Shown here in pieces: positions 15,772-61,236 of a stretch of DNA of 64,000 nucleotides; position 1 is the first letter of the stretch, and every line of letters starts with the position of its first letter. The position numbers were made by a program, and so were the translations under genes. Origin of the DNA: Escherichia coli (lineage in GTDB: Bacteria > Pseudomonadota > Gammaproteobacteria > Enterobacterales > Enterobacteriaceae); the NCBI RefSeq assembly GCF_013315695.1, contig NZ_CP054353.1; one strand, 5' to 3'. The notes under the pieces are model-generated. The model worked only from the letters and a program-made list of their open reading frames with translations. It did no database searches and had not been told where the DNA came from.

Positions 15772-17197
15772 TAATGCCAGTCAGTTAAGCAACTGACTGG
15801 CTCTTTTTCGGGGCTGTGGGGTATTTCCAGGGCCTCTCCTTTACCACTCTCGGGAAGGCCCTTTCCCTTCTTGTCGGTAATTTCACAAGTTGTCCCATAC
15901 TTGCAAGATCGCGCATCAGCTCCGGTATACGTCCCGGTGAAGCGCCCTGCAATGTCATCAGCATTCTCATCACCATTCCGCATGATTCTGAGAAACTCAG
16001 TTGATTCGGCCAGTAACCTTTCAGATGTTCCGCCATTTTAATCATCTGATATCTCACCAGATTATAAGCCAGTAAGACACCCCACAGCTCTTGCTCCACA
16101 AGCTCCGGTTTTTTACTTCTCAGCGTCAGCCTGCTCAGTTGCATCGTCTGTTTTATCTCCCTGTATCCCAGTTCGATTTCCCAGCGATGACTGTACAGAT
16201 CCGCCATTTCTCCTCCGGGGAAGCGCATGGCGTCCGTCATCGACGTCAGCAGATGGCAGACTTTTCCTTTGCGCGTCACGGTCAGCAGGCGGGCTGTCAC
16301 TTCATTTCCCAGTCCCGGCCACTTTTTTCGTGCCTGCGGGCTGGTTTTCAGCTTCACCAGATGATCGCCTTTACCCAGTTTTCTGATCTCTTCATATTGC
16401 GCTCCCTTTCTGAGAGGTATCATCCAGTGGCGGTGTTCTCCCGCCAGGCTCCAGGCATTTAACAGTCCCAGTGAGTAATAACCTTTATCCATTAACGTCA
16501 GAGTGTTATCGCCGGTTTGTTCTATAAGTTGCTCAGCAAGCTCATTTTCGCTGTTCTTCATCGTGCCGAAGGCTGCAGCCGTCAGCAGATGGCTGGTCAG
16601 TTCCATCTGGCAGACCATTTTGACCTGCGGGTAGAGCGCCGGGTTCCCGGCATGTGTCTGGCGGGGGAAGGCTGCATCGTTCTCTGGTGTATCCGGTGTG
16701 CGCCAGAACACACCATCGATGGCCAGCAGGGTCAGGCCGCACCAGTGCGGATGCGGCGTGGCGTTATGCCAGAGCTGCGCTGTTTTCGTGAACACGCGGC
16801 GGACAGCCTCACTTCCCAGGCGCTGGCGGGCCTGAATAACGGCACTGGGGGCAACGAAGGGGCGATTGCCCGGCAGCATGATGTCCAGGCGATTCACAAT
16901 CTGGTGAAGAGGTTCTTTACGCTCAAGCGCCATGCCAACAATACACCAGACCATCATTTCGAGGGGAAGACGGCGCTTGCGTAGCGTTACAGTACCTGAT
17001 TCGGCAAGGCAACGAGAGATGAGTTCGGGGTCGAGGTAATCCCCCAGAGAAGTCAGTGGGTTACGCAGAGAATCGTAACGGGATACCAGATCAAGAGCCT
17101 GTCCAATGTGCATAAAAAAATCCGGAAACAAGTGAGCGTTTCCGGATTCTTACACAGCCACTGGATCGGTCAACTGATCCTTAACTGATCGGCATTA
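15772..17197 (-). mobile_element. IS4 insertion sequence, complete (1426 bp)
   Basis: Imperfect terminal inverted repeats TAATGCC(A/G)(G/A)TCAGTTAAG at both ends, intact transposase, perfect 12-bp target duplication; length matches IS4. Confidence 0.85.
15785..17113 (-). CDS. insG: IS4 transposase
   Basis: ORF 15785..17131; start at [10 protein letters not shown] gives 442 aa; recalled as the IS4 InsG sequence. Confidence 0.85.
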
Positions 17198-22990: not shown

Positions 22991-23833
22991 ATGCATTCAC
23001 TCCAACGTAAAGTTCTGCGTACTATTTGTCCGGACCAAAAAGGTCTGATCGCACGTATCACCAATATTTGCTACAAGCACGAGTTAAATATCGTACAGAA
23101 CAATGAATTTGTTGATCACCGTACCGGGCGCTTTTTTATGCGCACGGAACTGGAAGGGATTTTTAATGATTCCACCCTGCTGGCGGATCTCGATAGCGCA
23201 TTGCCAGAAGGCTCCGTACGTGAGCTGAATCCTGCCGGTCGTCGCCGGATAGTGATTCTGGTCACTAAAGAGGCGCATTGCCTTGGCGATTTGTTGATGA
23301 AAGCCAATTACGGCGGCCTGGATGTCGAAATCGCGGCAGTTATTGGTAACCACGATACTTTACGTTCTCTGGTTGAGCGTTTTGATATTCCGTTTGAGCT
23401 GGTAAGCCATGAAGGGTTAAGCCGCAACGAGCACGATCAAAAGATGGCGGATGCCATTGATGCTTATCAGCCTGACTACGTGGTGCTGGCGAAGTATATG
23501 CGGGTATTAACGCCAGAATTTGTGGCACGCTTCCCGAATAAGATCATCAATATTCACCATTCATTCCTGCCAGCGTTTATCGGCGCACGTCCTTATCACC
23601 AGGCCTATGAACGTGGCGTGAAGATTATTGGCGCAACCGCTCACTATGTGAATGACAATCTGGACGAAGGTCCAATCATCATGCAGGACGTTATTCATGT
23701 CGATCATACCTACACAGCTGAAGATATGATGCGCGCAGGTCGTGACGTCGAGAAAAACGTCTTAAGTCGCGCACTCTACAAAGTACTGGCGCAGCGCGTC
23801 TTTGTTTACGGTAATCGGACGATTATTCTTTAA
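22991..23833 (+). CDS. purU: formyltetrahydrofolate deformylase
   Basis: 280 aa; N-terminal ACT domain and C-terminal formyltransferase domain. Confidence 0.92.
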   Translation: MHSLQRKVLRTICPDQKGLIARITNICYKHELNIVQNNEFVDHRTGRFFMRTELEGIFNDSTLLADLDSALPEGSVRELNPAGRRRIVILVTKEAHCLGDLLMKANYGGLDVEIAAVIGNHDTLRSLVERFDIPFELVSHEGLSRNEHDQKMADAIDAYQPDYVVLAKYMRVLTPEFVARFPNKIINIHHSFLPAFIGARPYHQAYERGVKIIGATAHYVNDNLDEGPIIMQDVIHVDHTYTAEDMMRAGRDVEKNVLSRALYKVLAQRVFVYGNRTIIL

Positions 23834-23914
23834 TCGCCAGCAAAAATAACTGGTTACCTTTAATCCGTTACGGATGAAAATTACGCAACCAGTTCATTTT
23901 TCTCAACGTAACAC

Positions 23915-23942
23915 TTTACAGCGGCGCGTCATTTGATATGAT
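23915..23942 (+). promoter_or_regulatory. tyrT: tyrT sigma70 promoter
   Basis: -35 TTTACA (23915..23920), 16-bp spacer, -10 TATGAT (23937..23942), GC-rich discriminator GCGCCCCGC; predicted start ~43 nt upstream of the mature tRNA 5' end. Confidence 0.75.
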
Positions 23943-23992
23943 GCGCCCCGCTTCCCGATAAGGGAGCAGGCCAGTAAAAAGCATTACCCCGT

Positions 23993-24076
<84 letters not shown>

Positions 24077-24110
24077 TCTCAAGCATTACCTCAAAATTTG
24101 AATTACCCTT

Positions 24111-24195
<85 letters not shown>

Positions 24196-24378
24196 TTACT
24201 TCCTGAAATACTCAAAACCTGTTACTCCGAGCTAATTCTGCCCGATGGCACCGCGTTTACCGGACCTAAAATATCCTCCCCTGAAGTTCGGATAAGCGAA
24301 GCGCATCCGACAACTCACCCCGCACCGTGCCCATAAAAAAACCCCGCCGAAGCAGGGTCTGTGTGAACTAAAATTCGC

Positions 24379-25056
24379 TTAGTGACGAGCGCGCACCAGC
24401 TGGTACTTACGTGTCAGATACTCCACCGGGACGCTCCAGATGTGTACCAGACGTGAGAACGGGAACAGCAGGAATAACGTCATCCCCAACACCAGGTGCA
24501 GACGGAAGATAAATGCCACACCATCAAGATGTTGAGAAGCACCACCGTGGAAGGTCACTACCGACTGCGCCCAGCCAACCAGTTTCATCATCTCGCTACC
24601 GTCCATATGCTGGGCTGAGAACGGAATGGTCAGCAAGCCCAGCGCGCACTGGATAACGAGCAGCGACAGGATCAGGATATCCGCTCCGGTAGTGGTTGCA
24701 CGCACGCGTGGGCTGAACAGACGACGCTTCAGCAACAGCACGCCGCCAATCAGACACAGCACACCGCTGGCACCACCAGCAAACATCGCCATTTTCTGTT
24801 TCACTTCAATCGGCAGCCAGGCTTCATACATCCAGTGCGGCGTCAGCATACCGAAGAAGTGACCGACAAAAATCCCCAGAATACCGATATGGAACAGGTT
24901 CGACGCCAGGTTCATCCCTTTGCGATCCAGCATCTGGCTGGACGCCGCGCGCCAGGTGTACTGCCCGTAGTCATAACGCAGCCAGCTACCAATCAGGAAG
25001 ACCGCCCCGGCTATGTACGGGTAGATATCAAAGAAGAACATATTCAGGAATTGCAT
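24379..25056 (-). CDS. narI: respiratory nitrate reductase A gamma subunit
   Basis: 225 aa dihaem b membrane subunit; last gene of narGHJI. Confidence 0.93.
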
Positions 25057-40163: not shown

Positions 40164-40698
40164 ACTGCAACAGCTGTTGAAAAGCCGGAATGTACTCTTT
40201 ATTGCAAACATTTCAGGGATGAAGTGAAGATGAATTGAGACGTAGTATCCACACCAAGCCGGCGTTATCCGGTGAGGCGCAATGTTGCGGGGGCTTTATC
40301 CCTGGTGGCATTGGTTGCTGGAAAGAGAAAACCCCCGCACGTTGAGAGGTACAACCTGACAACAGAACGGGGGCTAATCTTGAACCACAACAATTCAAGA
40401 ATAGCCGCAAAATGTTGTCCTTACAACAAGGCGGCTATATGACGCTCGCGCAGTTTGCCATGATTTTCTGGCACGATCTGGCAGCACCGATCCTGGCGGG
40501 AATTATTACCGCAGTGATTGTCAGCTGGTGGCGTAACCGGAAGTAAGGTGAAAACGGGCGTCAGGCTGCCGTGATGGCAATATGCGCCCGAAACCGGCCG
40601 CAGGGGTAACAGCCTGCGGCCCTTTTTGTCTTTATCTCTTCTGCAAGTAAATATTGGCAACCCGAGCTGGAAGCATCATCCAGAGCACTCATGAAACG
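40164..40698 (+). repeat. LDR (long direct repeat) unit 1, ldr/rdl type I toxin-antitoxin locus
   Basis: 535-bp unit nearly identical to 40699..~41166 (a few SNPs); contains the ldr ORF and its terminator. Unit boundaries approximate. Confidence 0.8.
40439..40546 (+). CDS. ldr: Ldr small toxic peptide (35 aa), type I toxin
   Basis: Encodes MTLAQFAMIFWHDLAAPILAGIITAVIVSWWRNRK; below the length cut-off of the ORF track; followed by hairpin plus T-run terminator (40596..40627). Confidence 0.85.
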   Translation: MTLAQFAMIFWHDLAAPILAGIITAVIVSWWRNRK

Positions 40699-57802: not shown

Positions 57803-59221
57803 ATGGTAAACCTGGTCATAGTTTCACATAGCAGCCGACTGGGAGAAGGTGTCGGTGAACTAGCCCGTCAGATGTTAATGGGTGATATTTGTAAAATCGC
57901 CATTGCCGCGGGAATTGACGATCCACAAAATCCCATTGGTACCGATGCCGTCAAAGTGATGGAGGCCATCGAATCTGTTGCTGATGCCGACCATGTGCTG
58001 GTCATGATGGATATGGGTAGCGCATTATTGAGTGCTGAAACTGCGCTGGAATTGCTGGCTCCCGAGATCGCCGCAAAAGTACGTTTGTGTGCTGCGCCGT
58101 TGGTCGAAGGTACACTGGCAGCAACGGTCAGCGCGGCCTCGGGGGCGGATATCGACAAAGTCATCTTTGACGCCATGCATGCCCTGGAAGCCAAACGTGA
58201 ACAACTGGGTTTACCGTCCTCCGACACTGAAATCTCTGACACATGTCCTCCGTACGATGAAGAAGCCCGTTCTCTGTCGGTGGTCATAAAAAACCGTAAC
58301 GGCCTGCATGTACGTCCGGCCTCCCGGCTGGTTTATACCTTATCGACATTTAATGCCGATATGTTGCTGGAGAAAAACGGCAAATGCGTTACACCGGAGA
58401 GTATTAACCAGATTGCGTTACTACAAGTTCGCTATAACGATACGCTGCGCCTGATTGCGAAAGGACCAGAAGCTGAAGAGGCACTGATCGCTTTCCGTCA
58501 GCTGGCTGAAGATAACTTTGGTGAAACGGAGGAAGTTGCTCCACCTACTCTGCGTCCCGTTCCGCCTGTTTCGGGTAAAGCCTTTTATTATCAACCTGTT
58601 TTATGTACGGTACAGGCAAAATCAACCCTGACCGTGGAAGAAGAACAAGAACGATTACGCCAGGCCATTGACTTCACGTTATTAGATCTGATGACGTTAA
58701 CAGCGAAAGCAGAAACCAGCGGGCTTGACGATATTGCCGCAATCTTTTCTGGTCACCATACACTGTTAGATGATCCGGAACTGCAGGCGGCGGCAAGCGA
58801 ACTCCTTCAGCATGAACATTGCACGGCAGAATATGCCTGGCAGCACGTTCTTAAAGAACTTAGCCAGCAATACCAACAACTGGATGATGAATATCTACAG
58901 GCTCGCTATATCGATGTGGACGATCTTCTGCATCGCACCCTGGTCCACCTGACCCAAACGAAAGAAGAACTCCCGCAGTTTAACTCGCCAACTATTCTAC
59001 TGGCGGAGAACATTTATCCCTCCACAGTACTGCAACTGGATCCAGCAGTTGTAAAAGGTATCTGCCTTAGCGCCGGAAGTCCGCTATCCCACAGTGCCCT
59101 GATCGCCCGTGAACTAGGGATTGGCTGGATTTGCCAGCAGGGTGAGAAACTGTATGCGATACAACCAGAAGAAACGCTAACGCTGGACGTTAAAACGCAA
59201 CGTTTCAACCGTCAGGGTTAA
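57803..59221 (+). CDS. dhaM: PTS-dependent dihydroxyacetone kinase, phosphotransferase subunit DhaM (EIIA-HPr-EI fusion)
   Basis: ORF 57797..59221; start at MVNLVIVSHSSRLGEG gives 472 aa. Confidence 0.93.
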   Translation: MVNLVIVSHSSRLGEGVGELARQMLMGDICKIAIAAGIDDPQNPIGTDAVKVMEAIESVADADHVLVMMDMGSALLSAETALELLAPEIAAKVRLCAAPLVEGTLAATVSAASGADIDKVIFDAMHALEAKREQLGLPSSDTEISDTCPPYDEEARSLSVVIKNRNGLHVRPASRLVYTLSTFNADMLLEKNGKCVTPESINQIALLQVRYNDTLRLIAKGPEAEEALIAFRQLAEDNFGETEEVAPPTLRPVPPVSGKAFYYQPVLCTVQAKSTLTVEEEQERLRQAIDFTLLDLMTLTAKAETSGLDDIAAIFSGHHTLLDDPELQAAASELLQHEHCTAEYAWQHVLKELSQQYQQLDDEYLQARYIDVDDLLHRTLVHLTQTKEELPQFNSPTILLAENIYPSTVLQLDPAVVKGICLSAGSPLSHSALIARELGIGWICQQGEKLYAIQPEETLTLDVKTQRFNRQG

Positions 59222-59536
59222 ACCACCGTTCGGATGGCATCATTCTGATGTCATCCGGCAATTTACTCTGCACTGATGTTTTTAACTACCTGTTATATTT
59301 TTCACCAAATTATGATGATTTTTCTTCGCTAATCGCGAACCCAACGTCGCTGGCTGGCTAATAAACAGACGTTATTTAATCACTCTATTTCGCCGTTATT
59401 TATCCCTTTAATTCCCTTTTCTAAAATGCCTGTCAGTTCGCAGAATGTGATTTCGATCATGCAGCTAGTGCGATCCTGAACTAAGGTTTTCTGATACTTG
59501 AATACCGTTTTATTCGGTTTCGCCAAAGGAGAATGA

Positions 59537-61236
59537 TTGATGAAATCCCCCGCACCTTCTCGCCCGCAAAAAATGGCGTTAATTCCAGCCTGCATCTTTT
59601 TGTGTTTCGCTGCGCTATCGGTGCAGGCAGAAGAAACATCGGTAACACCACAACCGCCTGATATTTTATTAGGGCCGCTGTTTAATGATGTGCAAAACGC
59701 CAAACTTTTTCCGGACCAAAAAACCTTTGCCGATGCCGTGCCGAACAGCGATCCGCTGATGATCCTTGCTGATTATCGGATGCAGCAAAACCAGAGCGGA
59801 TTTGATCTACGCCATTTCGTTAACGTCAATTTCACCCTGCCGAAAGAGGGCGAGAAATATGTTCCGCCAGAGGGGCAATCACTGCGCGAACATATTGACG
59901 GACTTTGGCCGGTATTAACGCGTTCTACCGAAAATACCGAAAAATGGGATTCTCTGTTACCGCTGCCGGAACCTTATGTCGTGCCGGGCGGACGTTTTCG
60001 CGAGGTATATTACTGGGACAGTTACTTCACCATGTTAGGGCTTGCCGAAAGCGGTCACTGGGATAAAGTCGCGGATATGGTGGCCAATTTTGCTCATGAA
60101 ATAGACACTTACGGTCATATTCCCAACGGCAACCGCAGTTACTATTTAAGCCGCTCGCAGCCGCCCTTCTTTGCCCTGATGGTAGAGTTACTGGCGCAGC
60201 ATGAAGGCGATGCCGCGTTGAAACAATACCTGCCGCAAATGCAAAAAGAATATGCTTACTGGATGGACGGTGTTGAAAACCTGCAAGCCGGACAACAGGA
60301 AAAACGCGTTGTCAAACTTCAGGATGGTACCCTTCTCAACCGCTACTGGGACGATCGCGATACGCCACGACCAGAGTCATGGGTGGAAGATATTGCCACC
60401 GCCAAAAGCAATCCGAATCGACCTGCCACTGAAATTTACCGCGACCTGCGCTCTGCCGCTGCGTCTGGCTGGGATTTCAGCTCGCGCTGGATGGACAATC
60501 CGCAGCAGTTAAATACCTTACGCACCACCAGCATCGTACCGGTCGATCTGAACAGCCTGATGTTTAAAATGGAAAAAATCCTCGCCCGCGCCAGCAAAGC
60601 TGCCGGAGATAACGCGATGGCAAACCAGTACGAAACGCTGGCGAATGCCCGTCAAAAAGGGATCGAAAAATACCTGTGGAACGATCAACAAGGCTGGTAT
60701 GCCGATTACGACCTGAAAAGTCATAAAGTGCGCAATCAGTTAACCGCGGCCGCCCTGTTCCCGCTGTACGTCAATGCGGCAGCGAAAGATCGCGCCAGCA
60801 AAATGGCGACGGCGACGAAAACACATCTGCTGCAACCCGGCGGCCTGAACACCACGTCGGTGAAAAGTGGACAACAATGGGATGCGCCAAACGGCTGGGC
60901 ACCGTTGCAGTGGGTCGCGACAGAAGGATTACAAAACTACGGGCAAAAAGAGGTGGCGATGGACATTAGCTGGCACTTCCTGACCAATGTTCAGCACACC
61001 TATGACCGGGAGAAAAAGCTGGTGGAAAAATATGATGTCAGCGCCACCGGAACGGGGGGCGGGGTGGCGAATATCCATTACAGGATGGCTTTGGCTGGAC
61101 CAATGGCGTGACGCTGAAAATGCTGGATTTGATCTGCCCGAAAGAGCAACCGTGTGACAATGTTCCGGCGACGCGTCCACTCAGTGAATCAACAACACAA
61201 CCGCTAAAACAAAAAGAGGCGGAACCTACGCCTTAA
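59537..61236 (+). pseudogene. treA: periplasmic trehalase treA, disrupted by a 1-nt frameshift near the 3' end
   Basis: ORF 59537..61111 (524 aa) ends ...[20 protein letters not shown]. The +1 frame from ~61069 continues for 55 codons as [37 protein letters not shown]... to a TAA at 61234..61236, which is the expected trehalase C-terminus. The shift lies in the G-rich tract 61055..61069. Confidence 0.6.

Follow-up and report, generated by a model that had tools for sequence, protein, structure and literature searches.

What promoter transcribes the two tRNA-Tyr genes that stand in tandem downstream of purU in this Escherichia coli genome, and what does this imply for the first of the two genes, which lacks a base of its acceptor stem? 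The promoter tyrTp is among the first promoters ever sequenced, and has become a standard model of stringent control, supercoiling sensitivity and activation by FIS. I examined a 64-kb stretch of DNA (hereafter the window), and in particular the region between purU and the first tRNA gene, for which the first-pass annotation had proposed a canonical tyrT promoter, formed by TTTACA, 16 bp, TATGAT and a GC-rich discriminator about 43 nt upstream of the first tRNA. All of these elements were recovered, at the following positions:

23834–23992, + strand: purU-tyrT intergenic region, between the stop codon TAA of purU (also + strand, 23831–23833) and the first tRNA-Tyr(GUA) gene, which begins at 23993

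23915–23920, + strand: −35 hexamer TTTACA, positions −35 to −30, read from the bases, identical in K-12 and present in 48/48 species loci

23921–23936, + strand: spacer GCGGCGCGTCATTTGA, 16 bp, likewise in 48/48 loci, with TGn at 23934–23936 directly 5′ of the −10 hexamer

23937–23942, + strand: −10 hexamer TATGAT, positions −13 to −8, read from the bases, present in 48/48 loci

23943–23949, + strand: discriminator GCGCCCC, positions −7 to −1, 7/7 G/C, with C23949 at −1

The TGn at the end of the spacer (TGA, 23934–23936) resembles an extended −10 motif. Together with G23950 and C23951, the discriminator GCGCCCC forms GCGCCCCGC, the string that had been given as the discriminator previously.

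I aligned this region to that of E. coli K-12 MG1655. From the purU stop codon through the tRNA start the two are 100% identical, and the sole two mismatches in the alignment, at 23791 and 23818, are both within purU. The tyrT upstream and promoter sequence is also matched by four other E. coli genomes, and the gene order (purU, the tRNA-Tyr pair, convergent narI) is annotated identically in K-12 and in four further genomes. In addition, the sequence found here is that of the tyrT UAS/promoter fragment used experimentally in PMC5418058 and given in its methods section. Since no base of this interval differs from the K-12 promoter, the region is in all probability (roughly 0.96) tyrTp, the sigma-70 promoter of the E. 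coli tyrT-tyrV tRNA-Tyr operon, in line with the original proposal, and no sequence evidence against this identification was found. The promoter itself is already known, is the type specimen of its kind and holds nothing new; the copy described here is an unchanged one of a standard model promoter, and its value lies mainly in annotation.

The weight of this call comes from the K-12 identity and from the conservation across genera, and not from generic promoter scanning. TTTACA-N16-TATGAT has a single exact match in the 64-kb window, where 0.02 would be expected, and a consensus promoter scan lists the tyrT site with 10/12 matches plus the TG. For the region as a whole the same scan returned 7 sites, against 3.5 ± 2.0 in shuffled sequence, which is regionally not significant. 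Such a rate, only about twice that of the shuffles, would suit a chance match of TTTACA and TATGAT to the consensus, with the tRNA-Tyr genes transcribed by read-through from purU or from some other start, and it also speaks for this explanation that purU is followed by no T-run terminator, only by a short palindrome at 23864–23876. The complete identity of the region to an experimentally dissected promoter stands against this coincidence, as do the near-invariance of the core in about 20 genera while its flanks drift, and the 43-nt pppG leader, which was determined on the RNA itself (PMC11143913); I regard it as so improbable that it carries practically no weight.

In order to evaluate this conservation, a bait was used that excluded the promoter, consisting of a tRNA-Tyr 3′ end, a gap of 20–50 nt and the 5′ half of a second tRNA-Tyr gene. 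Applied to the GTDB species representatives, it returned 48 loci from about 20 genera of Enterobacteriaceae, including Citrobacter, Enterobacter, Salmonella, Kluyvera, Kosakonia, Lelliottia, Leclercia, Atlantibacter, Trabulsiella, Yokenella, Cedecea, Superficieibacter, Silvania and Pseudocitrobacter. TTTACA, the 16-bp spacer, TATGAT and a GC-rich discriminator are present in all 48. The discriminator reads GCGCCCC in 37 of the 40 loci that fit the core regular expression (GCGCCGC in 2, GCGTCCC in 1), and is GC-rich as well in the other 8 loci, which fall outside that expression. Apart from three positions in the spacer, identity reaches 90% or more at each position between −35 and +6; the table was anchored on the hexamer pattern, so that its values of 100% for the hexamers are circular and the unbiased figure is that of the 48/48 loci with the pattern. 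Identity ranges from 10% to 90% per position in the sequence that flanks the core, with drift both in the upstream region and in the leader past +6. A conserved core with drifting flanks is the footprint that would be expected of a functional promoter under selection.

The transcription start was then placed using two lines of published information. The E. coli tRNA-Tyr precursor carries a 5′-pppG and has a leader of 43 nt, after an initial count of 41 (PMC11143913). The FIS sites I, II and III of tyrT are centred at −71, −91 and −122, as given in PMC2885671 after Lazarus & Travers (1993). Each position from 23946 to 23954 was taken in turn as +1, and the 15-mers around the published FIS centres were checked for the form G-N13-C. 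Position 23950 is the only one tested that places all three centres on such 15-mers, and G23950 lies exactly 43 nt from the tRNA 5′ end at 23993, such that the FIS register and the leader length agree. This leads to the following assignments:

23950, + strand: predicted transcription start (+1), a G, from the 43-nt pppG leader (PMC11143913) and the FIS-site register

23950–23992, + strand: 5′ leader of the primary transcript, 43 nt, identical to K-12, removed by RNase P

23872–23886, + strand: putative FIS site I GGATGAAAATTACGC, centre −71, G/C ends kept in 42/48 species

23852–23866, + strand: putative FIS site II GGTTACCTTTAATCC, centre −91, G/C ends kept in 42/48 species

23821–23835, + strand: putative FIS site III GATTATTCTTTAATC, centre −122, A/T-rich core, ends kept in 34/48 species

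Transcription in this strain would thus be expected to begin at 23950. Across the genera, the leader is conserved from +1 to +6 and variable beyond, with a length of 39 to 48 nt. All three FIS centres are found in the sequence at their published distances, as predicted sites. Site III overlaps the purU stop codon (23831–23833), and the regulatory region therefore runs 13 bp past the left edge of the interval 23834–23992, used for the locus previously, which cuts this site. For annotation, the gain is a start site predicted at 23950 and a regulatory region that reaches into purU, to 23821.

The palindrome mentioned above, ATCCGTTACGGAT at 23864–23876, is perfect, lies between FIS sites II and I and is partly conserved across genera. 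It is also all that underlies an Rfam tmRNA match at 23831–23879, which I attribute to chance (10.9 bits, gathering score 47, E = 0.2).

How such a promoter is regulated has been described in detail for K-12. tyrT serves as a model promoter in which the GC-rich discriminator imposes a dependence on negative supercoiling; GC-rich discriminators are also linked to the stringent control of stable-RNA promoters, of which those repressed by ppGpp are marked by a C at −1 (PMC8422995). Both features are seen here, with a GC-rich stretch between the −10 hexamer and +1 and C23949 at −1, and stringent control of the tyrTp in the window would match the treatment of the K-12 promoter in the literature (PMC8422995). 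I infer the activity, start site, strength, ppGpp response and FIS binding in this strain by transfer from K-12. On this basis, RNA polymerase holoenzyme would recognise the near-consensus TTTACA and TATGAT over a short 16-bp spacer, and would have to melt GCGCCCC, with its C at −1, before initiating at G23950. The GC-rich discriminator would make for a short-lived open complex, and this in turn for a dependence on negative supercoiling and a sensitivity to ppGpp/DksA, that is, stringent and growth-rate control. FIS, bound at three sites in helical phase (−71, −91 and −122, of which that at −122 extends into the end of purU), would raise initiation in early exponential growth.

Does this promoter serve both tRNA genes? 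In K-12, tyrT and tyrV are treated as one transcription unit from tyrTp. The corresponding features in the window are:

23993–24076, + strand: tRNA-Tyr(GUA) copy 1 (tyrT position), 84 nt by ARAGORN, with one C of C71/C72 missing between 24072 and 24073

24077–24110, + strand: intergenic spacer, 34 bp, equal to the last 34 bp of the 209-bp K-12 spacer except for C to T at 24109

24111–24195, + strand: tRNA-Tyr(GUA) copy 2 (tyrV position), intact, identical to K-12 tyrT and tyrV

A scan of the + strand found no promoter-like site in 23943–24244, an interval that includes both tRNA genes, and no terminator-like site from the promoter to the end of copy 2 (24195). With no such motif between the two genes, one promoter, tyrTp, should therefore drive both, a well-founded conclusion from the layout of the locus. 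The earlier claim that the promoter drives the tandem pair accordingly holds up, given the absence of intervening + strand signals, the 34-bp spacer and a layout that is kept in 48 species. That copy 2 has a promoter of its own, in the spacer or inside copy 1, such that the pair is not a single unit, is suggested only by the separate annotation of the two genes, and I found no positive evidence for it. With 34 bp between the genes and the + strand free of promoter-like sites over 23943–24244, with the tight tandem layout conserved in 48 species, and with RtT annotated as 'processed from tyrT transcript', this explanation is very improbable. Transcription from tyrTp alone would yield a single RNA comprising the 43-nt leader, tRNA-Tyr copy 1, the 34-nt spacer and tRNA-Tyr copy 2, from which RNase P and 3′-end nucleases would release the tRNAs.

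Further downstream, two candidate signals were rejected. A promoter-like site on the + strand at 24245–24272, beyond tyrV, has 9/12 matches and nothing to drive before the convergent narI, and is attributed to chance. A hairpin at 24339–24360 has good pairing and a T-run on the − strand only, and is the narI terminator; as a + strand terminator of the tRNA operon it is unconvincing, with two mismatches and no T-run.

The two tRNA genes differ at their 3′ ends. Copy 1 ends in ...CCCCCACACCA, while copy 2 and every relative in the alignment end in ...CCCCCACCACCA, that is, CCTTC CCCCAC ACCA compared to CCTTC CCCCACC ACCA. Copy 2 has a canonical cloverleaf with a 7-bp acceptor stem including G1-C72, followed by A73 and an encoded CCA, as in a functional gene. 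In copy 1, a 6-bp acceptor stem with G1 unpaired is predicted (−28.1 vs −31.7 kcal/mol), and its Rfam tRNA score is 41.2 bits, with a non-canonical 1-72 pair flagged, vs 53.4 bits for copy 2. Copy 1 thus departs from the functional tRNA-Tyr pattern of a 7-bp stem, G1-C72, A73 and CCA at 74–76, provided that the base was called correctly. To call the first copy defective, as the first-pass annotation did, is reasonable in view of the missing C, the 6-bp stem and the Rfam flag. With the promoter unchanged and the deletion 122 nt further downstream, it is fair to infer that this copy would still be transcribed at a high level. The claim of a transcribed defective copy nonetheless depends on one base call being real.

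I therefore searched for the same allele elsewhere. A BLAST search of 5,426 complete E. coli genomes did not recover it (best match 98.9%, with one gap), nor did exact-match scans of the GTDB species representatives and of the JGI metagenome contigs. Found in the window alone, the deletion allele is either a private mutation or an error in the sequence; both fit equally well, and the odds are near even.

Under the second of these, the promoter is as described and the deletion results from sequencing or assembly, so that copy 1 would read as the intact CCACCACCA and the locus would be an ordinary tyrT-tyrV operon with both tRNA-Tyr genes intact. The absence of the allele from all three collections speaks for this, and the nearest genome, MSB1_4I, with 15 differences in 64 kb, has an intact gene. 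The deletion also lies in a tandem repeat with a third copy of the gene elsewhere, a setting where read mapping or polishing can fail. Against this, the window is not indel-prone, with only three indels relative to MSB1_4I in 64 kb, of which one is MSB1_4I's own (24342) and one is in an ldr repeat that looks recombined (40387). The missing base is in a CC dinucleotide and not in a long homopolymer, and, because E. coli has three tRNA-Tyr genes, losing one should be tolerated. Taken together, I consider an error to be a serious contender, at a little under an even chance.

The same near-even estimate applies to the deletion being real. In that case, a pre-tRNA with a 6-bp stem and an ACCA shifted by one position would be made at stable-RNA rates ahead of the operon's only intact gene. 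Changes at G+1, G+2, C+71 and C+72 affect the processing of pre-tRNA-Tyr by RNase P, and broken stems lower both cleavage and the level of mature tRNA (PMC11143913). Counted from the 3′ end, A-CCA still follows a 6-bp stem in copy 1, and RNase P could, in principle, cut one position late and release a short-stem tRNA. A real deletion would thus remove one of the cell's three tRNA-Tyr genes with its transcription intact, and would provide a natural test of how RNase P chooses its cut site (stem measuring vs CCA pairing), of the clearance of defective tRNA, and of whether a bad upstream unit lowers the yield of the tRNA downstream.

A separate variant of the first tRNA-Tyr copy was seen in Escherichia sp. 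MOD1-EC7003 (L048), which has GAGTGG for GAGCGG in the D-loop region, with a canonical second copy.

Comparison of the window to its closest genomes yielded several further observations. Codon 3 of narX (33172) is ACA (Thr) in the window and AAA (Lys) in the two closest genomes, such that NarX here starts MLTRC. At 40352–40501, six substitutions and one indel relative to both of these genomes coincide with the first of two Ldr toxin gene copies, a cluster that looks like an exchange between Ldr repeats. In the two closest genomes, adhE and tdk are separated by an IS4 transposase gene, at coordinates that correspond to approximately 15785–17131 of the window, which is near-identical there. The last 16 kb of the window are identical to MSB1_4I. 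The trehalase gene treA (window approximately 59100–60800, corresponding to L056 3170–4866) carries a frameshift annotation in MSB1_4I, to which the window is 100% identical here; the same apparent frameshift is therefore present in the window.

The tyrT-tyrV locus is present in its compact form in the window: the spacer is 34 bp long, and copy 2 is not followed by an RtT repeat (24196–24380). In K-12, a 175-bp RtT-like unit precedes these 34 bp, which brings the spacer to 209 bp, and tyrV is followed by rttR; the window lacks both. Some other E. coli possess one RtT unit after the second tRNA-Tyr gene. An 801-bp query around the locus has matches in 5,425 of 5,426 complete E. coli genomes, and the compact layout is matched over at least 80% of the query in 1,863 (about one third). 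The compact form is probably the older arrangement, because a tandem pair with a short spacer is what the other genera have. The literature was also searched for the 178-bp repeats of tyrT/tyrV/rtT, but no useful paper turned up.

Representatives of Citrobacter, Kosakonia and Trabulsiella have an RtT element downstream of the conserved tyrT promoter and ahead of the first intact tRNA-Tyr gene. The promoter-proximal matches to RtT (Rfam RF00391, 69–77 bits) are:

L016, 9854–9998, − strand: promoter-proximal RtT

L043, 1919–2064, + strand: promoter-proximal RtT

L011, 1025–1165, − strand: promoter-proximal RtT

A similar promoter-proximal, RtT-like layout was also observed in L008, L045, L050, L052 and L055. 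The Rfam scan covered L016, L043, L011 and L045, and gave no promoter-proximal match for L045. The 5′ end of the RtT element in these loci resembles tRNA-Tyr (GGTGGGGTTCCCGAGCGA...), and its position before the first tRNA-Tyr gene makes them natural examples in which the unit transcribed first would not be a tRNA. The number of tRNA-Tyr genes at the locus also varies among genera, with four in tandem in Citrobacter sp. MGH106 (L054, 7057–7400) and three in Trabulsiella odontotermitis (L029).

Finally, the locus can be set against known systems. Between the K-12 tyrTp and that of the window there is no difference in the −35 hexamer, spacer, −10 hexamer, discriminator, 43-nt leader or FIS sites I–III. 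The rrnB P1, hisR and fis promoters have in common with tyrTp a GC-rich discriminator, a 16-bp spacer, a non-consensus −35 element and upstream FIS sites, and the stable-RNA promoters share with it a supercoiling sensitivity and a stringent control that are tied to the discriminator (PMC8422995). The spacing of the FIS sites differs: tyrT sites I and II are 20–21 bp apart and cooperative, whereas those of rrnB P1 are at −71, −102 and −143 (PMC2885671). tyrTp also drives tRNA genes only, and no rRNA operon. For the deletion in copy 1, the closest parallel is with the acceptor-stem mutants of su3 (the phi80 psu3 series of Altman, Smith and Brenner), in which C71 and C72, one of which copy 1 has lost, were affected too. 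However, the su3 mutants are laboratory-selected base substitutions in a suppressor gene, whereas copy 1 has a 1-nt deletion with a wild-type anticodon and a shifted ACCA.
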